64,000 nucleotides of DNA from a virus (Duplodnaviria; Caudoviricetes), in the IMG/VR virus record IMGVR_UViG_3300028888_000115, positions 11,458 to 75,457 of that record. The stretch is one strand, 5' to 3'. Under the pieces are notes generated by a model, which saw nothing but the letters and a program-made list of their open reading frames with translations, searched no databases and was not told the origin of the DNA. How positions within the stretch are numbered: the first letter of the stretch is position 1; every line of letters starts with the position of its first letter. Position numbers and translations under genes: made by a program. Shown piece by piece: positions 4,558 through 46,301 of this stretch.

Positions 4558-5061
4558 TTGGATACGTCCAAACAGCAAAACTCAATACGAGGCGTTTCTG
4601 AGCCTCCTGACGGAATTGCGAGATTCACGGTGTACGGAGAGCCAGTTCCCAAATTGAGAGCCAGAACTGTCAGGCAACAAACAAAATCGGGGAAAACTGT
4701 CACGCACAGCTATACACCAGAAAAGACTGAGATTCAAGAATTCAATGTCGTGATGGTGTACAAGTCAATATACCGGGGATTCGGCTTTGACGCGGATGTC
4801 CCGCTGCGTGTCGTCGTGACATTTTTTCTTCAGATTCCGAAGTCAACCAGCAAAATCAGAAAGCAACGGATGCTGTCTGGACTTGTCAGGCCAACGAAAC
4901 GACCGGATGTTGAAAATGTGGCAAAGCTGATCATGGATGCGCTTAACACTGTTGCATATCATGACGATTCGCAGATCGTGGAACTTGAAGTGAGAAAGTT
5001 CTATTCGGACCAGCCGAGAACGGAGATATTCATAGCGAGGATCGGCGATGAAAACGAATGA
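4558..5061 (+). CDS. rusA: RusA family Holliday junction resolvase
   Basis: GEPVPKLRAR and KRPDVENVAKLIMDALN...DDSQIV motifs. Confidence 0.9.
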   Translation: MDTSKQQNSIRGVSEPPDGIARFTVYGEPVPKLRARTVRQQTKSGKTVTHSYTPEKTEIQEFNVVMVYKSIYRGFGFDADVPLRVVVTFFLQIPKSTSKIRKQRMLSGLVRPTKRPDVENVAKLIMDALNTVAYHDDSQIVELEVRKFYSDQPRTEIFIARIGDENE

Positions 5062-5392
5062 ATACGGAACTCAAATTGACCGGAACGGGTATGCGCCAAG
5101 CGTTGTGGAATCTGATCAGACGCGGTGCATGCTGTGCGGAAAGCGAAACTGCAAGCTGGACCGGCACGAGCCTTTCAACGGGCCCCTGAGAGAAAAGAGC
5201 AAGCGTCTTGGAATGTGGGTTCTGATCTGCCACGAGTGTCATCAGGGAACGGACGGAGCACACAGCAGCGGAAGCAAGGCACGAAAACTGAAAGCAATCA
5301 CCCAGTACAGCGCCATGAAGCATTACGGATGGTCAATGCAAGAGTGGCACCATGCGTTCGGAAAAAGCTTTCTGGACGATAGCGATCTTTAA
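5048..5392 (+). CDS. HNH-like zinc-binding phage protein
   Basis: CMLC...HEPFNG...LICHECH. Confidence 0.6.
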   Translation: MKTNEYGTQIDRNGYAPSVVESDQTRCMLCGKRNCKLDRHEPFNGPLREKSKRLGMWVLICHECHQGTDGAHSSGSKARKLKAITQYSAMKHYGWSMQEWHHAFGKSFLDDSDL

Positions 5393-5481: not shown

Positions 5482-5964
5482 ATGTACAAGAGTCAGGCTG
5501 ATGCGGTCAAAGAATGGCTGCAGGCATATCTGAAGGGCGTAAAGAAAGTCGACGACATGCTGGAACGACTCCGCACAATCCAAGCAAGGATGAAGAGCGT
5601 CGGCGCACAGGAGTTATCAGATATGCCGAGACCACCGAGCGCTCCAAAGGACAGAATGGCCGAGTACGTTGTCCAATGTGAGTCTTTGGAGCTTGCGATC
5701 AAGAAAGAATCACACGAATTGGAATTGTGCAGGCAGAACATCATGGACCTGACCGGACAACTCAAGAAACCGGATGCCTGCACCATGATCCGGTACAGGT
5801 ACCTCTATGGGTACGAGTGGTCCGAGATTATGGCGAAGCTCTATAGCGAACGAAAAGATCTCACAGAAAAAGAAAACGCCTATCGGCGTAAGATGTACCG
5901 GCTGCACGAATCGGCACTGAAGGAGATGGCGAAGCTGTGGAACAAGAGCGAAAAATCGAGCTGA
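5482..5964 (+). CDS. RinA/ArpU/DUF1492-like late transcriptional activator
   Basis: Coiled coil then IRYRYLYGYEWSEI sigma4-like HTH; position at end of replication/modification block. Confidence 0.7.
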   Translation: MYKSQADAVKEWLQAYLKGVKKVDDMLERLRTIQARMKSVGAQELSDMPRPPSAPKDRMAEYVVQCESLELAIKKESHELELCRQNIMDLTGQLKKPDACTMIRYRYLYGYEWSEIMAKLYSERKDLTEKENAYRRKMYRLHESALKEMAKLWNKSEKSS

Positions 5965-6278
5965 GGAACACACTTTTCTGTTTGGAAGGCGATAACGTAT
6001 ACTTTCGTGGCCTTGACGCCGGTCGGCAGTGGGAAGGCTATGAGTGCCCGTTGTTCAACTTCTGGAATGCGAAAACAGCAGCGCGGTACATCTCAAATTC
6101 GAGCGTCGAGGTCTCTTTCGACAAAGAGCAAGGTGCGTTTATCGTATCCAAGCGCGGAGATCCGAACAAATACCTGCTGAGGATGTACAAGATCGAAAAG
6201 GAGGTCTATGTCGACTTCGGCGGTACAGGAAGATGGAAGAAAATTGAGAAGGAAACAAAAGGGGAGGAGCAGAAATGA
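5937..6278 (+). CDS. hypothetical protein
   Basis: ORF. Confidence 0.6.
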   Translation: MEQERKIELRNTLFCLEGDNVYFRGLDAGRQWEGYECPLFNFWNAKTAARYISNSSVEVSFDKEQGAFIVSKRGDPNKYLLRMYKIEKEVYVDFGGTGRWKKIEKETKGEEQK

Positions 6279-6775
6279 GAGTAACATCCGCAGAGGCGAA
6301 CAAGATCCTCAGAACGAAGCAGGATGAACTGAATGCTTTGAAAGCTGTGGAAAACAAAAGCGCGGTCTTCGTCGCGGCGACGACCGAGGATGTCGAGGCG
6401 GCGAGACCGGAGTACGACATCAAATCGGTGCAGGAGAAGATTGTAAACGCGCAGGCCGAGATCCGGAAACTGAAGCACGCAATCAATCTGTTCAATGTGA
6501 GCCACAAGCCGGAAGGGTTTGACATGACGGTCGACGAAATGCTGATCTATATCCCGCAGCTTACCAGCATGAAAGGCAAATATCAAGGCATGGCAAGCAG
6601 GCTTCCGAAAACAAGGCGGGAATCCGGATACAGCAGAAGCGGCCTGATCGAGTATGAGTATGCCAACTATGATCCGGCTTTTGCACAAGAGCAGCTTGAC
6701 CGGATAACCGACGAGCTTTCCAGAGCGCAACTGGCTTTGGACAAGCTCAATACGACGGAAACCTTCGAGATCTGA
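6275..6775 (+). CDS. conserved coiled-coil protein (DIP1984-like family)
   Basis: TSAEANK...KLKHAINLFN...MLIYIPQL...LDKLN; resembles a conserved Firmicutes family I recall near RNA-repair genes. Confidence 0.6.
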   Translation: MRVTSAEANKILRTKQDELNALKAVENKSAVFVAATTEDVEAARPEYDIKSVQEKIVNAQAEIRKLKHAINLFNVSHKPEGFDMTVDEMLIYIPQLTSMKGKYQGMASRLPKTRRESGYSRSGLIEYEYANYDPAFAQEQLDRITDELSRAQLALDKLNTTETFEI

Positions 6776-6791
6776 TTTGAAGTATATTCCG

Positions 6792-6938
6792 GCAGCACTG
6801 TTTTCAATGAAAGTAATTCTTGGTTATTAGGGTTCAAGGTTGTTGTTTTTTGGTTATTCCTCTTTGTTATCGGTTGACGTTTATGTTCAAGGTACAAGAA
6901 GAAGAAAATTCTTAACAGAACGTCTTTTACAGTGCTGC
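6792..6938 (+). ncRNA. putative structured RNA with GUU-repeat loop
   Basis: Perfect 10-bp stem GCAGCACTGT (6792-6801) / ACAGTGCTGC (6929-6938); inner stem TTCTTG/CAAGAA; 72-nt G/T-rich loop with 10 GTT. Confidence 0.55.
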
Positions 6939-6987
6939 GAAAACTTAGGCGGCGGCGGAAGTTCGGTTTCAAGCTGCTACATAAAGG

Positions 6988-7028
6988 AATCCCGCAAGAT
7001 CCTCAGGACCCTGCGGGATTTTCTTCTT
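6988..7028. terminator. intrinsic terminator between convergent genes
   Basis: AATCCCGCA / TGCGGGATT stem followed by TTCTTCTT. Confidence 0.6.
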
Positions 7029-7239
7029 CAGATGAATCCGGGACACAATGGATTATTTCACTGATATCACAGTTCAGCAGGTTACATAGACGAGTCATAA
7101 TCTCCCATGAAACAAGCTCACCATTGCGTATTTGCTGGACGTAGCTTTCTCCTATAAGTTTTTCCTTCCTCAAACGATAGGTGGTATACCCTTTGCTTTT
7201 GAGGGCAGATAGGACATCGATTTTGTAACGGATTTGCAT
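7003..7239 (-). CDS. XRE/Cro-C1 HTH repressor (copy 1)
   Basis: LKSKGYTTYRLRKEKLIGESYVQQIRNGELVSWEIMTRLCNLLNCDISEII; GGAGG RBS. Confidence 0.88.
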   Translation of the reverse strand: MQIRYKIDVLSALKSKGYTTYRLRKEKLIGESYVQQIRNGELVSWEIMTRLCNLLNCDISEIIHCVPDSSEEENPAGS

Positions 7240-7292
7240 AAGCTTTTCCTCCAAATATGCACGAGATAAAAGTGCACAAAATGCACAAAATA

Positions 7293-37010: not shown

Positions 37011-37095
37011 GTGCCTGTGGTGGAACTGGTATTCACATCCGATTTAAGATCGGACGCCAAAAGGATTGAGAGTTCAAATCTCTCCGGGCACACCA
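37011..37095 (+). tRNA. tRNA-Leu(TAA)
   Basis: Cloverleaf, TCCGA-TTTAAGA-TCGGA, variable arm, encoded CCA. Confidence 0.92.
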
Positions 37096-37098
37096 CGC

Positions 37099-37175
37099 GC
37101 TTCCGTGCTGCAACCGGTAGACAGGGGCGGCTCAAACCCGTCTGTTTCCGAGTTCGAATCTCGGCGGAAGCACCA
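37099..37175 (+). tRNA. tRNA-Leu(CAA) with short variable loop
   Basis: GCTTCCG/CGGAAGC, GGCGG-CTCAAAC-CCGTC, 5-nt variable loop, A73, CCA. Confidence 0.85.
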
Positions 37176-37199
37176 ATTAATCAGAAAAGGAGAGACAAG

Positions 37200-37844
37200 A
37201 TGGCGGTAGACATCCAGAAAGCGAAAGACGAATTCAGCATGATCTATGATCACATCGAAAGAGATGGGGCTATGGCGCTGTATGACTGGCTGGAAAACGA
37301 GACGGACTTTTTCAGTGCTCCGGCCAGCAGCAAGTACCATCTTTGCGAACCGGGCGGATTGTGCCAGCACAGCATCAACGTGTACAACCGACTCAAGATG
37401 TTCCTTGACTGTGAGTACGGCAAAAACAATCCTTACAGCGAAGAGACAATCGCGATTGTTGCGCTGCTGCACGACCTGTGTAAGACCGACTTCTATGAGA
37501 TGGATTGGAAAAACCAGAAAAACTACGACCAGGAGGTTGTCCGCAACGCACTTCCGAAAGAGAGAAAGAGCGATAACAGGGGAGAGTTCATCTGGGAGAG
37601 TGTTCCCACCTACACGATCCGCGAGCAATTCATCTATGGTCACGGAGAGAAGAGCGTTTATTTGATCCGGAACTATATGAATCTGACGGACGAAGAGGCT
37701 CAGGCGATCCGGTTTCACATGGGCAGCTTTACCGAAGCCGACAAGAACAATGCTGGCAAGGTCTACGCCCAAAGCCCTCTGGCCTTCTACTTGAATATGG
37801 CGGATGGAGCCGCGACCTTCTTGGATGAGCCGAGGGGTGAGTGA
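37200..37844 (+). CDS. HD-domain phosphohydrolase
   Basis: APASSKYH...GGLCQHSINV...ALLHDLCK...GHGEKS. Confidence 0.88.
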   Translation: MAVDIQKAKDEFSMIYDHIERDGAMALYDWLENETDFFSAPASSKYHLCEPGGLCQHSINVYNRLKMFLDCEYGKNNPYSEETIAIVALLHDLCKTDFYEMDWKNQKNYDQEVVRNALPKERKSDNRGEFIWESVPTYTIREQFIYGHGEKSVYLIRNYMNLTDEEAQAIRFHMGSFTEADKNNAGKVYAQSPLAFYLNMADGAATFLDEPRGE

Positions 37845-38158
37845 TGGAAATTCCGGAAGCAAAGTCGCTTAGATGGCTGGCGAATATGTTCCCGTATACA
37901 GAAGGAGCGGTGGATCAGGTCGACAAAATGAGCAACTGCATCCATCTGTATGCGACGAACGGCGCGAACAAGATTGACGAACTGGCGAACAGAAAGCAGG
38001 GAACATGGATCTATAACACAGACGGATGGACTCCACACCTTCGGTGTTCGGAATGCGGATTCAACTTTCCGGTTGTTGCTGCCGAAGATGGAGATCCTAC
38101 GCCGAGAAAGTTTTGCTCCAACTGCGGAGCTCCCATGATGGAAGGAGAACTGATATGA
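37844..38158 (+). CDS. zinc-ribbon protein
   Basis: CSECG...FCSNCGAPM. Confidence 0.7.
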   Translation: MEIPEAKSLRWLANMFPYTEGAVDQVDKMSNCIHLYATNGANKIDELANRKQGTWIYNTDGWTPHLRCSECGFNFPVVAAEDGDPTPRKFCSNCGAPMMEGELI

Positions 38159-38565
38159 CCGCAAAAGAGATGGCGGAAATCCTCAATGGTCGGGAATACG
38201 GCATGGAGGTAGATTCGGACGACAAAGCTGCGGCGAAGGCCAGCGGACTTGTGATCGTCTACGGGTACTCGGATGACTGCGCGGAACTGGAAGGGGCAAT
38301 CGATGACGAGGTGTCCTGCTACGATGGCGGCGGGTTCTCTGTCACCAAAGACCGCGTTTGGAACGGTCCGGATTGCGGAAACGACAGGTGCGAGTTCTAC
38401 CAAGCCGCAAAGAAGGAAGCCAAATTGATTACTGCGATTTGGTGTGATCCGGAATCTGGGGCGTCTTGGTCTTACAAGACGGACATCCCGCACGAGACCT
38501 TCAACATCTACGAAGACGGAGAACTGTTTTGTATCGGAATCGTATTCAGCATAGACGACCTGTAA
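38155..38565 (+). CDS. conserved phage protein
   Basis: AKASGLVIVYGYSDD...IPHETFNIYEDGE. Confidence 0.8.
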   Translation: MTAKEMAEILNGREYGMEVDSDDKAAAKASGLVIVYGYSDDCAELEGAIDDEVSCYDGGGFSVTKDRVWNGPDCGNDRCEFYQAAKKEAKLITAIWCDPESGASWSYKTDIPHETFNIYEDGELFCIGIVFSIDDL

Positions 38566-38778
38566 ACTGGCTGACGGAGCGGCAAAGGCAATATCTGGAA
38601 AGAGCCTGCCAAGCAGCCGGTCTGGCTCTTCCAAAGAATCCGGATACGATGCTCTTGTGCGGCGGTTCAAGGGGCGGCGGAAAGCTTTTCTTCAAATGGG
38701 CTTATGAGGCCGGAATTGAGAATCCGATGCTGATAAACGTCCTGACGGAAGAGGGCATGGAATTGAGAAAAAAGATAC

Positions 38779-39807
38779 TTGGAGATTTGTGAGGTGATAG
38801 CTACGAAGAAAGGAAAAGAGGTCCCGGTGATCCGGGACATGACGGAAGAGCAGACAAGGGAAATGTTCTATCGATGCGAGCCAATACTGATCGGATATGG
38901 CGGAAGCATCGCTTACGGGACCAATCTCCCGACCTCGGACGTGGATATTCGCGGGATCTACATGAATCCTCTGGATGAGTTTATCGGATGCCGTCCTGTA
39001 TCGGAGCAGTACTGCCCATCGGGAACGGATATCACAATCTACAGCCTGAAGAAAATGATGCATCTGCTTTTGCAGTGCAATCCGAACGTGATTGAAATTC
39101 TCGGGCTGAGGCCGGAGCACTACCTGTACAAAACCGAAGAAGGCCAGATGTTGGTGGACAACGCGGAAATCTTTCTGTCCAAGCACGCGGCTTACACCTT
39201 CGGAAACTATGCCAAGTCGCAGTTGAACCGCCTGATGAACAAGTCCGGACGGGCAAACGATCAGGTGGTCTCGAACGAGGTCAGGTCAATTTCCAAAACG
39301 CTGAGCTCTATCCGCAAAAGGGAAGGCCTGCAAAACATCCGAATCGACGAGGTGGACGGCGTGCCGGTTCTGACCATCAATGAGTCCATGCCGATTGACA
39401 AGTTTGCCAGCATAACCAACGAGATCAACAATGTCCACTTGGACTACAAGTCCAGTTCCCGCAACCGCAAGGCCGTGGAGCACAGCAAACTGGCAAAGCA
39501 CATGATGCATCTGCTGCGTCTGTACATGATGGGCATTGACATCTTGGAATCCCACAAGATCGTCACATATCGCGAGGCGGAGCACGACCTTCTCATGGAC
39601 ATCCGCAACGGGAAGTACCTGAAAGAAGACAAGACCACGCCGACTGCTGAGTTCGACGAGCTTCTGGCGGATTACACGGCGCGGTTTGAAAAGGCGGTGG
39701 AGGAGACGACGCTTCCAAAGCGACCGGACACGGATAAGGCCAATGAACTGATGATGCGGCTTGTCCGCATGCACTATGACGGACTGTCAGGAGGAACGAC
39801 ACGATGA
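38779..39807 (+). CDS. RlaP-like (Pol-beta superfamily) nucleotidyltransferase
   Basis: GGSIAYGTNLPTSDVDIRG, NPNVIEIL, KHMMHLLRL; start uncertain. Confidence 0.85.
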   Translation: MEICEVIATKKGKEVPVIRDMTEEQTREMFYRCEPILIGYGGSIAYGTNLPTSDVDIRGIYMNPLDEFIGCRPVSEQYCPSGTDITIYSLKKMMHLLLQCNPNVIEILGLRPEHYLYKTEEGQMLVDNAEIFLSKHAAYTFGNYAKSQLNRLMNKSGRANDQVVSNEVRSISKTLSSIRKREGLQNIRIDEVDGVPVLTINESMPIDKFASITNEINNVHLDYKSSSRNRKAVEHSKLAKHMMHLLRLYMMGIDILESHKIVTYREAEHDLLMDIRNGKYLKEDKTTPTAEFDELLADYTARFEKAVEETTLPKRPDTDKANELMMRLVRMHYDGLSGGTTR

Positions 39808-40445
39808 CGGATATTGATAAGTTGAAAGAAGAATACAAGAATGTCAGAGCCGTGTTCGGAGCTTTCAAGTGCCGTTTGGACGCGGCAATTCAGAAAGCGG
39901 AGTGTATCGCCAACGCGGAAGAAATCGCCTACCAGAAAGGATATGAAAGCGGCAAAGCTGAGGCAGAAATCCAATTGCTCAATGAAAACGGCGAATGGGC
40001 CAAAAAGCTGAAGCAGACAGCCTATCAGAAAGGCACCCGGGACGGAAACGTCGAAGGCGCTCTGGCGGCGTGGGATATTGCCACGATCATCGTGACGCCG
40101 GAGGAAGACGGCGGCACCATTCCGACAAAGGACCTGAGAGAACTGTTCGACGTCGAATGTGACTATGAGGTTTTCAAACGGTATACTCCGAGCGAGGCTC
40201 TGGCAAAGCTTCAGGAGTACGACAAACAGATCCGGGTCGGAGATGAGGTCATTGCGGAAGGTGACGCAAAGTATATTGTCACGCAGATCAAGAACAATGA
40301 CGGATGCAAAACATACTCCGGCATCAATTCCGATGGAGAGACGTTCTGCTATTTTGAGACGGACGGCGTAACCAAGACAGGAAAACACGTGGATCTCTCC
40401 AAAATGTTTTCTTCCATCCGGGAGGAATCAGAAAAGAATGAATGA
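39804..40445 (+). CDS. hypothetical protein
   Basis: AYQKG repeats; IRVGDEV. Confidence 0.7.
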   Translation: MTDIDKLKEEYKNVRAVFGAFKCRLDAAIQKAECIANAEEIAYQKGYESGKAEAEIQLLNENGEWAKKLKQTAYQKGTRDGNVEGALAAWDIATIIVTPEEDGGTIPTKDLRELFDVECDYEVFKRYTPSEALAKLQEYDKQIRVGDEVIAEGDAKYIVTQIKNNDGCKTYSGINSDGETFCYFETDGVTKTGKHVDLSKMFSSIREESEKNE

Positions 40446-41364
40446 GAATTACCGGAATCTGTTTCGCGCGATTTCGGCGAACGACCTTCCCAAAACAAGG
40501 GCCTATGCTCAGGTAATTCTCCGGACTAACAGCACGGCAAAAGACGCCCAGTTCTGCGAAAATATTTTGCAGAAGATGGATGATCAGGATAAGGCTGGAC
40601 CGGAGATCCCGTATAACCTGAAGGGGGTTATTCGGACCAGCAGTTCGCCGTTCGGATTTCATGCGGACAGGTATTACCTTTCGCCGCGCGAGAAAACGGT
40701 CATCGAACACATCAAGAAGATGTATCAGGTGTCCGGGAAGCTCGCTGAGCTTGGGATCAGATACACCAACGCGGTTCTCCTGCACGGAGAATCCGGAACC
40801 GGTAAGACTACCTTCGCGCAGTACGCTGCAATCTTGCTTGGGCTTCCGTTCTTCTATGTGAGCATCACACAACTGATCGACTCCTACATGGGCAAGACGG
40901 GTCAGAACTTGGAGAATGTCTTCGAGTTCGCCAACTCGCAGCCGTGTGTCCTCGTCCTGGACGAGATTGATCAGATCGGCTCCAAAAGACGGGATGACGG
41001 CGGTGTATCCGGAGAGATAAAGCGCGTGCTCATTACGATTTTGCAGAACATGGACAGACTCCCGAATCATGTTGTTCTGGTCGCCGCGACAAACCGCCCG
41101 GACTCATTGGATGATGCTCTTGTTCGCCGCTTTGCGGTCAAGCACGAAATCACCCGCCTGAATTTGGAAGAAAGCGAGGCTTTTGTCAGTCGGTATATGT
41201 CAAGTCTCGGCTTGGGATGGGCAGGCTCCGTCAGAGCGTTCCTTTTGTCTTTGGGTGCAGACAAATGGAACTACACACCGGCTGAGCTTTCCCAGCATTT
41301 AAATGAAAAGATTGCCGAGGCGATCTACACGGGCGAGCAGGACCCGACGATTTATCTGAATTGA
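40438..41364 (+). CDS. AAA+ ATPase
   Basis: GESGTGKT, VLDEID, AATNRPDSLDDALVRRF. Confidence 0.92.
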   Translation: MNENYRNLFRAISANDLPKTRAYAQVILRTNSTAKDAQFCENILQKMDDQDKAGPEIPYNLKGVIRTSSSPFGFHADRYYLSPREKTVIEHIKKMYQVSGKLAELGIRYTNAVLLHGESGTGKTTFAQYAAILLGLPFFYVSITQLIDSYMGKTGQNLENVFEFANSQPCVLVLDEIDQIGSKRRDDGGVSGEIKRVLITILQNMDRLPNHVVLVAATNRPDSLDDALVRRFAVKHEITRLNLEESEAFVSRYMSSLGLGWAGSVRAFLLSLGADKWNYTPAELSQHLNEKIAEAIYTGEQDPTIYLN

Positions 41365-41377
41365 GGAGGACGGACAG

Positions 41378-41653
41378 ATGAGGCGAAAGATTGCCAAGCG
41401 TCTGAAGAGGGAAATCGTCAAAATGGGGGCCGTCATCCAAAAAGACGGTTGGGATGTTCCGAGGAAAAGCGTCCCGAGAAAAGAGAACGGCTACATCTTC
41501 AAAGTCATGTATCGGGGCTGGTCCATATTTGCAGCCGGTGAAGATGAACTGGAATCCTTCAGAATGGTCCTGGACGTCATGAAAAACGACTGCGAAGAGA
41601 TTTTTGTTCGCGAAAATAAAACCGATGGAGGAAAACAAGATGACCAAAGTTGA
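41378..41653 (+). CDS. hypothetical protein
   Basis: GGAGG RBS. Confidence 0.7.
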   Translation: MRRKIAKRLKREIVKMGAVIQKDGWDVPRKSVPRKENGYIFKVMYRGWSIFAAGEDELESFRMVLDVMKNDCEEIFVRENKTDGGKQDDQS

Positions 41654-41924
41654 GCAGCATGCTAAGGTCTGCAAGGAACTGAATGAGCTTTACAGCAGAA
41701 AGAATTCTGATTACGGAGATTCTTTCGGCAAGAGCTATGAGGAGTTTGGCCCGGTTATGGCGGCAATCCGGATGGGCGACAAGCTCAATCGATACAAGGC
41801 TCTGATCAAGGGGCGTCAGCAAGTCAATGACGAAAGCGTCAGGGACACCCTGATTGATCTTGCCAACTATGCTGTCATGACGGTTGTGGAGATGGATCTG
41901 CAAGCGAAGGGCGGCGAAACATGA
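41640..41924 (+). CDS. DUF1599 / nucleotide-modification-associated domain 1 protein
   Basis: KNSDYGDSF...IRMGDKLNR...ESVRDTLIDLANYAVM. Confidence 0.8.
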   Translation: MTKVEQHAKVCKELNELYSRKNSDYGDSFGKSYEEFGPVMAAIRMGDKLNRYKALIKGRQQVNDESVRDTLIDLANYAVMTVVEMDLQAKGGET

Positions 41925-42349
41925 CCGAAACAGAGACCAGCCGAGATCCGGTCGTCGGACGCCTTGACAAAGCCACACTCGATACATTGAGAATGGTGTA
42001 CAAAAAAGGCACCAAAGTGGTAGCAATCAAGGTCTTTGGGTTTCCTTCCGGGAAGATCGGATACGTGAAAGAGGTCCTTCCAAACGGAAACATCAAACTC
42101 CGGTGGGAGTCCGGCGAGGACACCGAGATCATATATGGGAAAGAAAGCATCCGGGAATTCACTGCCGGAAAGTGCATCTTGAAACGAGACAAGGAAGAGG
42201 CGGAAGGCGGCTGCGATGACTTCGTGTGCGAGCGCTGCGGATGGAACATCGATGTCGCCGAAGCACGTCTCCAAAGAATCCGAAACGATGAGATGCACAG
42301 AAACCCGGACGGCACAAAAAGCCTCAGAGTCCAGAGCGCGAGAGTGTGA
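41921..42349 (+). CDS. DUF4314-like protein
   Basis: LRMVYKKGTKV...G.V..V...G.I...W.SG...II.G.E. Confidence 0.55.
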   Translation: MTETETSRDPVVGRLDKATLDTLRMVYKKGTKVVAIKVFGFPSGKIGYVKEVLPNGNIKLRWESGEDTEIIYGKESIREFTAGKCILKRDKEEAEGGCDDFVCERCGWNIDVAEARLQRIRNDEMHRNPDGTKSLRVQSARV

Positions 42350-42357
42350 TTTTGGGG

Positions 42358-42386
42358 TTGACGTATGTCTAATTTTAGTGTATAAT
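42358..42386 (+). promoter_or_regulatory. sigmaA promoter with operator in spacer
   Basis: TTGACG-17-TATAAT; ATGTCTAATTTTAGTGTA 42365-42382. Confidence 0.75.
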
Positions 42387-42432
42387 TCAAACATAACCGA
42401 AAAGCATTTGATGAAAGCCACACAGTTCACTC

Positions 42433-42490
42433 TTTGTTCATGAAAGTGACACCTTGCCGTGTTAAAATGACTATGATGGAGAAAGTGTAG
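42433..42490 (+). promoter_or_regulatory. 58-bp conserved element (putative late promoter), copy 1
   Basis: Near-identical to 62221-62278; first 21 nt identical. Confidence 0.7.
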
Positions 42491-42512
42491 ATACACTCCG
42501 AGATAGTAATTG

Positions 42513-42547
42513 AACGCGGCTGAGAGAAGCCGCGTTTTCCTTTTTTT
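42513..42547 (+). terminator. leader terminator-like hairpin
   Basis: AACGCGGCT/AGCCGCGTT followed by T-tract. Confidence 0.7.
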
Positions 42548-42559
42548 GAGGTGAGCGCG

Positions 42560-43258
42560 ATGATTGACAAAAGAGCGATCCGAAGGTATCATAAACGGGT
42601 AGATGCGAGACTTGCAGCGAGAGGCAAACGGTTCGACGGGAACCGGTGGGAAGAAGACAAACACCCGAGAGCGAAGGACGGAAAGTTCGCCTCCGGGAAC
42701 GGCGGACCATCAAGGCAGAGCGAAAGCAAGCCAGCGGCGAATGCGGCAGGCTCGGCAAAGCCAGTTGCAAAATCGAGGATCGAGCTTGACGGACCGTCCG
42801 GAAGCAAGGGCTTTGCTGACAAGTACATGGCGTCGCATCCCGATGTCGCAAAGGAGGCCTCGAAATACAGGGGTGTCCTGAACAAGGTGAAAACCTTCAA
42901 GGCGGACGAGGACGGAACCTTCAGCGCAACAACCGGAGAAAGGCTTGACCTGACCGAAGGGTTCTGCGTTACCTTCCACCAAAACCTGAAGATCGGCGAC
43001 GAGTACGGCGCTTATGATGACGACACGTATTCCAAGATGTGTGCCATTACGAAGCACGAACTCAAGTCCAGCGATGTCTACATCGGCTATTACGGGAATC
43101 CGGAAGTTTCGTTCAATTGCCCGGATGAGAAAACGGCGATGGACTTTGCGATCAAGCATAACCAGAAGTCGATTTACAACTGCAAGACCGGAAAGACCAT
43201 TCTGAATAAGCACTACAATCCGGAGACAAATCCGATAGAGGGCGATAACGATGGCTAA
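42560..43258 (+). CDS. putative capsid-cargo protein 1; HPRxxxGKF motif; C-terminal SAM-lyase-like domain (tentative)
   Basis: AIRRYHKRVDARLAARGKRFDG leader; WEEDKHPRAKDGKF; IGYYGNPEVSF...AMDFAIKHNQKSIY. Confidence 0.6.
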   Translation: MIDKRAIRRYHKRVDARLAARGKRFDGNRWEEDKHPRAKDGKFASGNGGPSRQSESKPAANAAGSAKPVAKSRIELDGPSGSKGFADKYMASHPDVAKEASKYRGVLNKVKTFKADEDGTFSATTGERLDLTEGFCVTFHQNLKIGDEYGAYDDDTYSKMCAITKHELKSSDVYIGYYGNPEVSFNCPDEKTAMDFAIKHNQKSIYNCKTGKTILNKHYNPETNPIEGDNDG

Positions 43259-43550
43259 GATCGATATTGGAAAACTGAATGAATCCGTTTCATCCTTTGT
43301 GGAAAACCCGCATTGGAAGAAGTATCTGGAAGAAGCTCCGTCCGGCGAGTGCAAGGCGTACATCAAACTGAACTTCTATCTCAGCGACATCGAATCAGAT
43401 GGCCCGGAGAAAGACGCGGTGATCGACAAGATGAACGCCTACGAGGATAAGCTTGGCCTTGCAGACTGGAAGCACCTGCTGAAATACGCAGGGAACAATC
43501 CCTTCGCCGGTAAGTGCAAGAAGCGGATTGCAGAGCTCTCAGAACAATAA
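43251..43550 (+). CDS. small protein, putative immunity partner
   Basis: Overlaps stop of cargo 1; NPHWKKYLEEAPS. Confidence 0.6.
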   Translation: MAKIDIGKLNESVSSFVENPHWKKYLEEAPSGECKAYIKLNFYLSDIESDGPEKDAVIDKMNAYEDKLGLADWKHLLKYAGNNPFAGKCKKRIAELSEQ

Positions 43551-43599
43551 ACGATACGGGTTGGTAAACCCCGGCATAAAAACCGAAAGCTTCCAATAT

Positions 43600-43675
43600 T
43601 GCGGCGTGGTAGCAGTGGTAGCTCGCTGCCCTCATAAGGCAGAGGTCGTTGGTTCGAATCCAACCGCCGTAACCA
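43600..43675 (+). tRNA. tRNA(CAT) (Met or Ile2)
   Basis: CTGCC-CTCATAA-GGCAG; lacks the initiator GGG/CCC pairs; CCA. Confidence 0.9.
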
Positions 43676-43826
43676 AAGGTCGGGTAGCTCCCGAATGATC
43701 TCAGTAGCTTGTCGGTGTGCCTGAGAGAGAATAACAAAGGCCTTTCTGAAAACTCCTTGCGCGTGAACGGTCGTGCGCAGGCTGGGGCGCGAGTGAGATA
43801 ATCTAAGAAGGGAAACCGCACAATAC

Positions 43827-43903
43827 AGCCCTGTGGTGCAGTTGGTGAACACGTCGGCCTGTCACGCCGAAGATCGCGGGTTCAAGTCCCGTCAGGGTTG
43901 CCA
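43827..43903 (+). tRNA. tRNA-Asp(GTC)
   Basis: Cloverleaf, G73, CCA. Confidence 0.93.
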
Positions 43904-44097
43904 ATACGTCTCATCTGAGCGTGGCACAACACAGCCTGTTGACGCAAGGGCTGCACGGGCGAAATCAGATGCCGGGGCGGGGTTACATCCCACGGAGCGT
44001 CACCGTGCTCGCAGAAACGGACTCGGTATGTCCCAAACCATCGTGAGAGTATACCTTGGATGGCACAAAGCGTTTAGAAGTGCCCGATCAGCCTTCT

Positions 44098-44182
44098 GCG
44101 CGTATCCCGGACGGTCCGGGACCAAGGACTGTGAAGAGCGTGTTCGATTCCGCGAACTCGAAGGTTCGACTCCTGACAGTGC
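44098..44182 (+). ncRNA. degenerate tRNA-like element containing CTGTGAA (His-type loop)
   Basis: 6-bp D-like hairpin, V-like hairpin, AGG-TTCGACT-CCT T-arm; no anticodon stem, no CCA. Confidence 0.35.
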
Positions 44183-44209
44183 TGGTGCAATATCAGTCCT
44201 TTTTCATAC

Positions 44210-44298
44210 GCGGAATGATGCCGTCCGGCGACGGCTGCGGCCTTGAAAACCGTGGGTAGCAGAGATGCTATGGGGGTCGGCACCTCCGTTCCGCGCCA
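44210..44298 (+). tRNA. tRNA-Ser(TGA), non-canonical 8/4 fold
   Basis: 8-bp acceptor GCGGAATG/CGTTCCGC; D-stem GCCGTC/GACGGC with CGGC loop; T-arm GGGG-GTCGGCA-CCTC; G73, CCA. Confidence 0.85.
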
Positions 44299-44301
44299 GA
44301 T

Positions 44302-44391
44302 GCAGTGTTGCCAGAGCGGTAATGGGCCCGCTTGGAAAGCGGAAGCCAGGTTGAGAAGCCTGCGAAGGTTCGATCCCTTCACGCTGCGCCA
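44302..44391 (+). tRNA. tRNA-Ser(GGA)
   Basis: Canonical class II cloverleaf, CCA. Confidence 0.92.
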
Positions 44392-44394
44392 GAT

Positions 44395-44484
44395 GCTTCG
44401 TTATGCCGGACGGCTCCGGTCCTTGCCTCGAAAGCAGAGGGTGCCCGATGAGGGCATGGGGGTCGGCACCTCAGCGAAGCGCCA
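44395..44484 (+). tRNA. tRNA-Ser(CGA), non-canonical 8/4 fold
   Basis: 8-bp acceptor GCTTCGTT/AGCGAAGC; D-stem GCCGGA/TCCGGT with CGGC loop; same T-arm; CCA. Confidence 0.85.
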
Positions 44485-44487
44485 CAT

Positions 44488-44562
44488 AGAGCTGTCGTCT
44501 AAGGGTAAGACACGAGGCTTTGACCCTCGTATGTGAAAGTTCGAGTCTTTCCGGCTCCGCCA
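44488..44562 (+). tRNA. tRNA-Gln(TTG)
   Basis: CGAGG-CTTTGAC-CCTCG; CCA. Confidence 0.92.
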
Positions 44563-44566
44563 GTAT

Positions 44567-44652
44567 GGAAGAGTGGCCGAGTTGGTCAATGGCGGCGGAC
44601 TGTAAATCCGTTGGCACTGCCTACACAGGTTCGAATCCTGTCTCTTCCACCA
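44567..44652 (+). tRNA. tRNA-Tyr(GTA)
   Basis: GCGGA-CTGTAAA-TCCGT; variable arm; CCA. Confidence 0.93.
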
Positions 44653-44655
44653 CAA

Positions 44656-44732
44656 GGTCCCATCGACTAACAGGCAAGGTCACCAGCCTTTCACGCTGGC
44701 AATGCTCGGTTCAAATCCGGCTGGGATCACCA
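44656..44732 (+). tRNA. tRNA-Glu(TTC)
   Basis: CCAGC-CTTTCAC-GCTGG; CCA. Confidence 0.92.
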
Positions 44733-44735
44733 CAT

Positions 44736-44811
44736 GGGGTCGTAGCTCAGCTGGGAGAGCGCCTGCCTTGCAAGCAGGAGGCAGAGGGTCCGAGCCCCTC
44801 CGATTCCACCA
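44736..44811 (+). tRNA. tRNA-Ala(TGC)
   Basis: G3:U70; CCTGC-CTTGCAA-GCAGG; CCA. Confidence 0.92.
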
Positions 44812-44814
44812 CAA

Positions 44815-44891
44815 GGTCTCTTCGTCTAAAAGGATAGGACGCAAGCCTCTCAAGCTTGTAATGCTGAGTTCAAGTCTCGCAGAGATCACCA
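44815..44891 (+). tRNA. tRNA-Glu(CTC)
   Basis: CAAGC-CTCTCAA-GCTTG; CCA. Confidence 0.92.
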
Positions 44892-45013
44892 GCACATCTG
44901 ACCGCCGAGGACGCGTACTCGGGAGATACCCGCAGATAGACGGAGAAGAAGCGGGGCTGAGCGGCACGGTGCAGACCCGACACCCGCAGGGTCCATGCCG
45001 CAAGCGGGTATAT

Positions 45014-45090
45014 GGCTCATTAGCTCAGTTGGTTAGAGCGCATGGCTGTTAACCATGATGTCGAAAGTTCGAGTCTTTCATGAGCCTCCA
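45014..45090 (+). tRNA. tRNA-Asn(GTT)
   Basis: CATGG-CTGTTAA-CCATG; U73; CCA. Confidence 0.92.
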
Positions 45091-45387
45091 CCAAGTGGCT
45101 GTGCTGCAGTGTTTGCATCGAAGCACCTCCTTTCGTAAATCCACACGTCTGCTGGCCGTGCTTGCGCTACGGTTGTTGGATGAAACAAAGCAGAGCCGTG
45201 AACCGGAACAACGTGCGTACTGGGAACGCACGCCGGGAAATCGGCACAATACAGAACTGTTGGCTTTGATTCCTGACTTGTACCGAAGGCTTCGGTCCCA
45301 CCGAGGCGATTGATGTAGGTAGCATCTGGGGCTCATGAAAGCCGCAGGCCCGATTAAAGCTCCGCGAGACGGGCTATCGGGCAATAC

Positions 45388-45462
45388 AGGTTGGTGGTGT
45401 AATGGCAACATGCCGGTCTCCAAAACCGTGCGATCAGGGTTCGAGTCCTTGCCTTCCTGCCA
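45388..45462 (+). tRNA. tRNA-Trp(CCA)
   Basis: CCGGT-CTCCAAA-ACCGT; G73; CCA. Confidence 0.9.
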
Positions 45463-45473
45463 AAAAAGAATAC

Positions 45474-45562
45474 GGAGCGTTGGCCGAGTTGGTAAGGCAC
45501 CGGATTGCTAATCCGTGGTTAGGGGTAACTCTACGAATGTTCGAGTCATTCACGTTCCGCCA
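45474..45562 (+). tRNA. tRNA-Ser(GCT)
   Basis: CCGGA-TTGCTAA-TCCGT; variable arm; CCA. Confidence 0.92.
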
Positions 45563-45985
45563 TTTCCGGGTAGCTGCCGGATGATGTCAGAGCAGATGCA
45601 CCAGAGGCCTGACAGAGAATATGAATGGTAGACCGACCAAAGCGGGGCGGAAGCCCTGCACAAGGCCTATGGCGGTACTACAAGTGAGGGCAACGTCGAA
45701 GGAACGCGACTGATTTGTGCGGGATGGCAAACCCACAAAAAAGAACAAACACGCCCCGCTGCGGGTGACAGCACCAAAGGAAGCTGAGACGTCCGGTTTC
45801 CGGGTCTATCACTTAAAGCGGGGAATAGGCCGAATAAAACAGGAACTTGGCCGTAGGGCAGTGAAAGTGCGAATGCGTTGTAGCTGGCTGATGATGGCAG
45901 ACAGAGCAAACGGCTGTAACGACAGGACGTGAGAATTAGCCGTCTACTGAAAGGGAAAGAAATCCCATCAAAGCTGTTTGCTCAC
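45563..45985 (+). ncRNA. large structured ncRNA, GOLLD-like (tentative)
   Basis: About 420 nt directly 3' of a tRNA, no credible gene; segments GCGGGT..CCAAAGGA, GTAGGG..GTGAAAG and terminal GGG..AATCCC..AAAGC resemble the GOLLD 3' domain as I recall it. Confidence 0.45.
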
Positions 45986-46052
45986 AATTCTATATCGGAT
46001 ACCGTCATGCCGAAAGGTGTGGCGGTATCTTTGCTTTGGGGAGAGAGCAGAA

Positions 46053-46301
46053 ATGAGTAAGTCGAAGGATATTCGCACGCTCTGCGCCTCCTGCAGAGCA
46101 GAATACGAGGAAGCCGGATTTGAACTGATCAAAGTCTGGGTGAAAAACAAAGAGGAATGTGACTGGTGCCGCGTGAGACTGGGGTGGACCTATGAAATAC
46201 GCGGAAAGAGACAACATCTTCGTAGCTCAGATGGCAAGAGCGCTGAATACTCCCAATTCAGGGGTCGCGAGTTCAAGTCTCGCCGAAGATGGACGCGATA
46301 G
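46053..46301 (+). CDS. small zinc-binding protein
   Basis: LCASC...CDWC; 3' end overlaps the tRNA-like element. Confidence 0.55.
   Translation: MSKSKDIRTLCASCRAEYEEAGFELIKVWVKNKEECDWCRVRLGWTYEIRGKRQHLRSSDGKSAEYSQFRGREFKSRRRWTR
46216..46291 (+). tRNA. tRNA-like element with 9-nt anticodon loop (TACTCCCAA), no CCA
   Basis: ATCTTCG/CGAAGAT acceptor; normal D and T arms; CTGAA/TTCAG stem. Confidence 0.65.

Follow-up and report, generated by a model that had tools for sequence, protein, structure and literature searches.

The early region of a phage known from a 75-kb viral record in IMG/VR contains a gene for a 166-aa helical protein (6275..6775, + strand), and directly behind it lies a structured RNA of about 198 nucleotides (nt) on the same strand (6784..6981), which the covariance model R1 matched with 124.8 bits (E = 1.9e-30). 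Coordinates refer to the window, that is, the whole 64-kb stretch of the record that was analysed. A sequence-only reading of this locus had paired the gene with a noncoding RNA (ncRNA) displaying GUU units in a stem-closed loop. Comparison with related loci indicates that the gene and the RNA are probably the two halves of an undescribed protein–RNA particle.

Architecture of the RNA

The stop codon of the gene ends at 6775, and the closing helix of the RNA, P1, begins 16 nt further on. Its 5′ arm (6792..6801, +, GCAGCACTGT) is 100% complementary over 10 nt to its 3′ arm (6929..6938, +, ACAGTGCTGC). The 5′ arm is preceded by the motif UUCCG (6787..6791, +), in which columns 6–8 are nearly invariant. 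Inside P1, TTCTTG (6817..6822, +) is complementary to CAAGAA (6895–6900), and this inner stem surrounds the G/U-rich core that carries the GUU track (6823..6894, +). The core contains five boxes, namely A (6832–6841), B1 (6853–6859), B2 (6866–6870), B3 (6873–6877), and A′ (6885–6893). The 3′ arm is followed by the junction GAAAACUU (6939..6946, +) and the terminal hairpin (6951..6978, +; stem 6951–6956 with 6973–6978), which has a conserved 14-nt loop, GAAGUUCGGUUUCA (6958–6971, +). This loop is engaged in two pseudoknots. In pseudoknot 1 (PK1; 6943–6946 with 6959–6962), the junction letters A6943, C6944, U6945, and U6946 (ACUU) pair with A6959, A6960, G6961, and U6962. In pseudoknot 2 (PK2; 6789–6791 with 6964–6966), CCG of the 5′ motif (C6789, C6790, and G6791) pairs with C6964, G6965, and G6966.

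Across the family, the order is a UUUCCG 5′ end, the P1 5′ arm, variable hairpins, box A (GUUYAnnGUU), three GUUAU boxes, box A′, the P1 3′ arm, GAGAAAACUU, an optional inserted hairpin, and the terminal hairpin, often with a T-run, which in many relatives follows the hairpin directly. The terminal loop consensus, GAAGUWCGGUUAYA, is kept across loci. The earlier drawing of the RNA was a single stem-closed loop with an inner 6-bp stem, trailed by a small hairpin and a terminator. It was right about P1 but incomplete, as the two pseudoknots tie the 5′ end and the P1 junction to the hairpin loop. The inner stem is complementary in the window; however, it is lineage-specific, lies outside the family consensus, and is weakened in a 97%-identical relative (L002). 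The small hairpin and the terminator are both present, although the hairpin (6951–6978) turned out to be the most conserved part of the RNA and no appendage.

The composition of the window copy is unusual. The 72 nt of the core comprise 36 T, 18 G, 11 A, and 7 C, and contain ten GTT, as compared with 4.4 in composition-preserving shuffles (P about 0.0006). At least ten GTT were found in only 8 of the 127,856 72-nt segments on both strands of the 64 kb, and such a density occurs nowhere else on either strand. Seven of the ten GTT fall in family-conserved boxes. Two exact repeats are present: TTGGTTATT starts at 6820 and 6850, and GTTCAAGGT at 6832 and 6885. The GC content drops to 0.33 at the RNA, and the AT skew is negative nowhere else in the window. 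The 10-bp stem, the ten GTT units, both repeats, and the compositional contrast, all of which had been read from the letters, were thus confirmed as lying beyond chance or apart from the rest of the window.

The minimum free energy fold of the lone window copy was no better than those of its shuffles (z = −1.32). The case for a structure was therefore built on the relatives. Two further complementarities were noticed in the window copy. Just 3′ of the core, GAAGAAGAAAAT (6898–6909) is the perfect complement of the T-run at 7018–7029 after the terminator hairpin, and box B (6856–6867) is 83% complementary to the 12 nt beyond the terminal hairpin (6979–6990). These may be alternative pairings or chance.

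Covariation evidence for the fold

Covariation was assessed in two sets of copies. The first contained 59 MAFFT-aligned copies, in which P1 and the hairpin were written on anchored columns. Here, 79.9% of the cells paired versus about 40% when the partners were slid, and the double-change cells numbered 243 versus 88 in shuffles, with none of 500 shuffles as high. In the second set, 91 copies aligned by R1, 86.5% of the cells paired versus 32–45% in the slid controls. All nine modelled P1 pairs had changed on both sides, so the closing stem, whose covariation had been proposed as a check, does covary across homologs; the same holds for eight of eight stem pairs of the terminal hairpin. The pairing energy of the P1 arms was −15.4 kcal/mol for cognate and −8.9 kcal/mol for non-cognate combinations. 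RNAalifold applied to the plain MAFFT alignment recovered the terminal hairpin alone, and P1 required the anchored columns. Within the helices, G-U exceeded A-C by 102 to 34, and the folded strand is therefore the + strand.

A mutual-information scan of the 91-copy alignment found a pair outside the model, which led to PK1 and PK2. For PK1, column pair 305–366 was AU in 78 copies, GC in 9, and GU in 2, with none unpaired. The four-letter sets were ACUU:AAGU (52), ACCU:AGGU (9), and GCUU:AAGC (7), and ACCC:GGGU was seen too. PK1 was paired in 97.1% versus 90.6% in shuffles, none of 2000 of which reached this value. For PK2, column pair 8–370 was GC in 67 copies, AU in 6, GU in 5, UA in 1, and other in 10, with the variants CCA:UGG, CCU:AGG, and CCC:GGG. 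The support for PK2 is weaker than that for PK1 because its letters seldom vary. An alternative PK2 between UUC and the loop GAA was discarded, having no consistent covariation by eye. Since the hairpin loop pairs with the junction and with the 5′ CCG, it bridges both strands flanking P1 in a three-way clamp. The comparison of relatives shows a genuine, intricately folded, doubly pseudoknotted RNA of roughly 200 nt.

The GUU track

The five core boxes are conserved in sequence and have no consistent pairing. Their letters are kept in 60–74 of 76 non-redundant relatives. The distances between GUU starts cluster strongly: 107 were found at 7 nt, 56 at 6 nt, 86 at 13 nt, and 54–57 at 19–20 nt, versus a flat level of about 8 in shuffles, and there is a further peak at 26 nt. 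The GUU periodicity suggested by the window copy is thus retained across homologs. Boxes A and A′ also tend to change in parallel, carrying the same letter 59 times versus 49.8 expected at position 3, and 48 versus 36.7 at position 4. As far as alignments can tell, this fits two identical readers. A likeness of box A to a tRNA T-loop was considered and dropped, the would-be A58 position being variable. A resemblance of box A′ to clostridial type I-B CRISPR repeats was likewise set aside.

Coupling of the gene and the RNA

The protein family gave 439 matches in a word-indexed search and 1106 cluster representatives (clusters at 50% identity) at E ≤ 0.001 in an exhaustive search. Loci were taken from viral contigs and species genomes (417 confirmed, 80 kept), and neighbourhoods were derived from our own open reading frame (ORF) calls. 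The carriers include Lachnospiraceae, Oscillospiraceae, Ruminococcus, Erysipelotrichaceae, Synergistales, and Thermoguttaceae, as well as phages as large as 200 kb. Even where the protein identity falls to 36% (L003–L005), the homologs have the same kind of element directly 3′ of the stop codon; their elements have the 3′ motif in common, and the stems differ in sequence yet remain complementary. An exact-motif scan of viral contigs yielded 61 matches, which were four already known contigs and chance matches. A nucleotide search of a phage collection gave no match, and a protein search returned two unannotated faecal phage fragments only.

R1 matched 90 of 95 homolog loci, always on the gene strand (+) and directly downstream. 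Among the five loci without a match, L082, L134, and L137 are truncated or partial, L075 has a divergent copy visible by eye, and L146 lacks the element. In most loci, the RNA begins 5–10 nt past the stop codon. Five whole genomes had R1 matches beside the gene only, including both copies in one genome. Among 151 genomes of one order, the gene was present in eight, and the RNA was found in the same eight, 6–28 nt downstream, together with one weak, unverified extra match. The neighbours (54 upstream and 57 downstream) are otherwise unrelated housekeeping or mobile genes, and the unit is therefore the pair. The stem-closed GU-rich tract thus accompanies the homologous genes in nearly all loci, and the protein–ncRNA pair that had been postulated for the window recurs genome by genome. 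These comparisons support a dedicated, self-contained two-part module.

In the 190-kb phage of L003 (3799–4079), a 90-nt tRNA match follows the module, as does a match to a group I intron that is weak and below threshold (28.3 bits). In L003–L005, the module heads a tRNA array.

The protein and its superfamily

AlphaFold2 modelled the 166-aa protein as a helical bundle with a small sheet (predicted local distance difference test, pLDDT, 89.8). The only specific fold match was 3KDQ, the uncharacterised DIP1984 protein of Corynebacterium diphtheriae (Foldseek E = 2.4e-4; template modelling score 0.59–0.63). VIA-align gave Z = 13.3 for the same structure, with a root mean square deviation of 4.7 over 151 aligned residues, and Z = 8.3 for the next best. 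By sequence, the window protein has no match to Pfam PF20935 (gathering cut-off of 27 bits) at E ≤ 0.01; scores of 29.2 and 29.7 bits, just above the cut-off, were reached by relatives that are about 50% identical. NCBIfam NF038048 (DIP1984_fam) scored 16.2 bits (E = 0.0087), below its 70-bit cut-off. The models thus support a distant, fold-level relative of DIP1984/DUF6847, and the DIP1984 likeness named in the sequence-only reading stands by fold, below the sequence cut-offs. PADLOC and PHROG gave nothing beyond coiled-coil noise, and a Protein Data Bank sequence search and a protein atlas added nothing for the 166-aa protein. In the literature, the term 'DUF6847' occurs in no paper, and no functional study was found for DIP1984, septicolysin, or 3KDQ.

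A homodimer was predicted with a score of 0.80, as compared with 0.00 for the best of three controls; the prediction used an alignment of our own, and its success may reflect the existence of the solved relative 3KDQ. Of 30 proteins solved as one-chain pairs, 20 reached this mark, as did 1 of 23 with a single-chain structure. The runs agreed in 100% of the contacts, and the partner pLDDT was 92. The prediction supports the oligomer that had been invoked, in the form of a homodimer.

Of 301 Bacillota genomes, 15 contained classical DUF6847 genes, and Deinococcus radiodurans has them too. The Bacillota genes (L163–L176) are followed by a different stretch of conserved, non-coding sequence, about 200 nt long (for example, L164, 1936–2160). 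In it, GGCGAGYAC stands near the start and ACUACC..GYGCUG..GUGAGGGYGGG at the end, and a T-arm-like hairpin is often present. This sequence matched neither R1 nor Rfam. Since both branches have a conserved downstream RNA, an RNA partner appears, from the sequences compared, to be a superfamily trait, the RNA itself differing between the two branches. The classical RNA has GUA units 7–8 nt apart and occurs in two sequence types. In two genomes, two classical DUF6847 genes lie 2 kb apart (G170:C35, 118299–120713; G260:C4, 24556–26993), and in G170 a gene of about 434 aa stands between them.

A link of the protein family to RtcB/Ro60 RNA-repair loci had been suggested. Neither RtcB nor TROVE (Ro60) recurred in the 25 most frequent families listed for the 54 upstream and 57 downstream neighbours of the window subfamily, or in the 25 listed for the 77 ORFs around 12 classical DUF6847 genes, and the suggested link is thus not supported.

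RNA family searches and expression

The RNA matched no Rfam family, and Y RNA, ribozyme, and riboswitch families were absent from its Rfam matches. RAGATH-27 (RF03100; cut-off of 76.1 bits) had no match at E ≤ 10 in the window at 6700–7100, in the whole 75-kb record, or in the related loci. The tRNA region of phage T5 (AY543070, L189) is annotated with several 'stable RNAs with unknown functions', among them the 719-nt RNAX (40848–41566) downstream of the 144-aa T5.081, with a tRNA-like Rfam match at 41432–41503. The T5 genome had no match to PF20935, our own protein profile, or RF03100.

The sequencing runs that contain the window sequence are ruminant gut samples. In two studies, Logan contigs of metatranscriptome libraries lie wholly within the RNA; such contigs cannot rank expression, and no inference is drawn from uncovered parts. 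X15 has a 155-nt contig covering 6798–6952 with no difference from the window, and X17, from the same sample, has a 153-nt contig inside the RNA. X16, from the other study, has a 162-nt variant contig (6799–6955) with ten substitutions. Nine of these are outside the five boxes, and the tenth, 6859 C>T, gives the second commonest letter of the family at that position. No contig on the coding region was found in X15 and X17; in X16 and X18, the contigs on it were separate ones only. The contigs inside the RNA are a hint of expression only. One contig from X17 joins 6915 back to 6793, going back 123 nt with a 3-nt overlap (CAG), at no conserved element. The joint could reflect a circular or tandem form, or an artefact of reverse transcription or assembly.

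Genomic surroundings

Upstream in the early region lie genes for a DNA methyltransferase, RusA (4558–5061), an HNH protein (5048–5392), and a phrog_36 transcription regulator (5482–5964), followed by an ORF of unknown kind before the 166-aa gene. The small HNH protein matched the IscB HNH region weakly (E = 3.8e-4) and is most likely an ordinary phage HNH endonuclease. Downstream, a Cro/C1-type helix–turn–helix (HTH) gene on the − strand (7003–7254) converges with the 166-aa gene, and a terminator-type hairpin (6988–7020) with a T-run (7021–7029), together 6988..7029 with no strand assigned, is common to the RNA and the HTH gene. Compared with the 97%-identical relative (L002/L018), the HTH region at 7041–7275 is the sole piece replaced, and similarity returns at 7276; the segment looks like a swapped regulator cassette. 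Elsewhere in the window, 15 tRNA genes are clustered on the + strand at 37011–46291. One of them (44209–44295) scores 49 against a threshold of 47 bits for tRNA-Sec and may simply be a long-arm tRNA.

Proposed mechanism and alternatives

Most likely, transcription of the gene runs on into the RNA, which would form the 3′ portion of the transcript, because no promoter-like site was found between 6145 and the RNA start, and the RNA starts so soon after the stop codon. As the covariation shows, P1 closes the core, and the terminal loop acts as a splint by pairing with the junction ACUU and the 5′ CCG. The compact three-way clamp formed in this way locks both ends of the RNA and presents a pseudo-symmetric track of unpaired units, each led by GUU and spaced by about 7 nt, running from A through the three GUUAU boxes to A′. 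DIP1984-fold dimers may line up in register on this track, with every 7-nt unit serving as one site, as HutP and TRAP read spaced triplets, and a stable protein–RNA particle would result. We lean modestly towards this two-part module, in which dimers read the GUU track.

Several observations weigh against such a module. The protein is acidic (pI 4.9–5.6), and searches of Pfam, NCBIfam, PHROG, and PADLOC matched no known RNA-binding domain. The invariant residues F32, R44, P45, Y47, K67, H68, N74, T85, D87, Y127, Y129, and N131 are in the predicted dimer interface, so that many of the invariant positions are not on the free surface. The cores contain a mean of 5.6 GUU, and some positions of the 7-nt register have none. 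The statistic behind the A/A′ identity covariation ignores relatedness. The RNA-library contigs may stem from DNA, and they show neither strand nor ends. Finally, the protein–RNA contact is one that we infer by likeness to HutP and TRAP.

An acidic protein without a recognisable RNA-binding domain would suit an RNA that acts alone in trans, as a decoy or sponge for a host or phage factor reading spaced GUU units, or as the pairing partner of another RNA, the protein belonging to the same pathway without binding. The conserved, unpaired core boxes look like sites read by some factor, and the module adjoins tRNA genes in large phages. We regard this as unlikely, since the gene and the RNA co-occur nearly one to one, at a fixed distance, in at least three phyla and in phages. 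Such coupling is rarely kept without a physical or cis dependence, and no complementary target was identified. The RNA might instead be a cis-acting device of the 3′ untranslated region (3′-UTR), a knotted end-cap that keeps exonucleases out, defines the 3′ end, or links folding to the termination of translation, with no separate particle. With the RNA starting 5–10 nt past the stop codon, the PK2 strand would be covered by a ribosome that terminates there. The terminal hairpin leads directly into a T-run in many relatives, and no promoter-like site precedes the RNA. In exonuclease-resistant viral RNAs, the 5′ end is locked in a pseudoknot, and the same is seen here. However, a stabiliser has no need of some 66 nt of unpaired GUU boxes that are periodic and conserved in sequence, and the quite different RNA behind the classical DUF6847 genes points to a protein-specific partner. 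A 3′-UTR device seems to us quite unlikely.

The pseudoknotted three-way fold, with its near-invariant junction and loop, is as intricate as those of small aptamers and ribozymes, and the one RNA-library contig joining 6915 to 6793 could be thought to point to a self-cleaving or circularising RNA. We nevertheless consider a ligand-binding or catalytic RNA, including a riboswitch-like aptamer, to be improbable. The back-joint is a single contig with a 3-nt microhomology at no conserved element, and no ribozyme or riboswitch family was matched. Moreover, the RNA lies 3′ of its gene, and the genes downstream differ from locus to locus and are often convergent, which leaves nothing to switch. Short repeated boxes within a flanking inverted repeat can also be protein-binding sites in DNA, and the window is a phage, which brings iterons, a recombination site, or a packaging site to mind. 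The G-U excess in the helices (102 versus 34 A-C) speaks against a DNA-level element, as does its constant position, in phages and chromosomes alike, immediately behind one gene family and on the coding strand. Covariation of pseudoknots would make no sense for duplex DNA, and this explanation has next to no weight for us.

A particle in which dimers read the GUU track thus remains our preferred account of the locus. Its biological role is more doubtful. An accessory module in phage–host conflict or RNA handling is conceivable, because the spread is patchy (phages, prophages, and chromosomes of at least three phyla) and no third gene is fixed beside the pair; we would give this clearly less than an even chance. 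A wider generalisation, for which our confidence falls slightly short of even, is that DIP1984-fold proteins and cis-encoded, pseudoknot-clamped RNAs with repeats of about 7 nt form a widespread, undescribed class of ribonucleoprotein (RNP). In it, dimers would line up along the register, each protein subfamily would have co-evolved with its RNA, and phages and bacteria would use the particle in conflict at the RNA level, for example around the decay of tRNA or mRNA.

If the account holds, a DUF that has had a crystal structure but no function since 2009 would gain one, and it would come with its own RNA. This RNA, absent from Rfam, combines a closing helix, two pseudoknots on one hairpin loop, and an ordered GUU track. 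The breadth adds to the interest: phages of rumen and gut carry the module, as do bacteria from at least three phyla, and the protein subfamily comprises about 1100 clusters at 50% identity. A real particle would be a new kind of small RNP for bacterial and phage biology, and cultured carriers exist, among them Dysosmobacter segnis BX15 (with two copies), Enterocloster alcoholdehydrogenati C5-48, and Lacrimispora saccharolytica An861, which makes binding, stoichiometry, and phenotype directly testable.

Comparison with known systems

The closest relatives of the module are those of the protein. The window protein has the DIP1984/DUF6847 fold over nearly the whole chain, and classical members are likewise accompanied by a conserved, structured downstream RNA. 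The differences are that the window protein lies below the curated cut-offs, and that its RNA is unrelated to the classical one in sequence and model.

Type III toxin–antitoxin systems (ToxIN) resemble the module in pairing a protein of about 170 aa with a repetitive, pseudoknotted RNA, and in being scattered over phages, plasmids, and chromosomes. ToxI lies upstream of the toxin and consists of 36-nt repeats in a tandem array. The window RNA, in contrast, is downstream of its gene, and both order and scale differ. No tandem repeat, such as the direct repeats of some 30–40 nt in type III systems, was detected at 6700–7100, and toxin families (ToxN, AbiQ, etc.) and defence models had no Pfam, PHROG, or PADLOC match beyond coiled-coil noise. 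Ro60 (Rsr) and the bacterial Y RNAs also combine an ncRNA with an adjacent protein partner, have paired ends closing an internal region, and occur in bacteria and phages. Unlike in those systems, TROVE and RtcB do not recur among the most frequent neighbour families, no Y RNA family of Rfam was matched, and the window protein is a 166-aa helical protein predicted to dimerise.

The proposed binding logic is closest to that of two Bacillus systems, HutP on the hut leader and TRAP on the trp leader. The window protein matched neither in Pfam, and neither was among the fold matches, which does not exclude them. The protein fold appears to differ, and the window RNA lies 3′ of its gene and is no 5′ leader overlapping a terminator. 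Its track is also closed by P1 and two pseudoknots, and binding by the window protein is here a proposal by likeness. What the systems have in common is a small oligomeric protein, in our case a predicted dimer, encoded beside an RNA with an unpaired track in which a triplet returns at a fixed spacing. The sites of HutP, too, are 7 nt apart.

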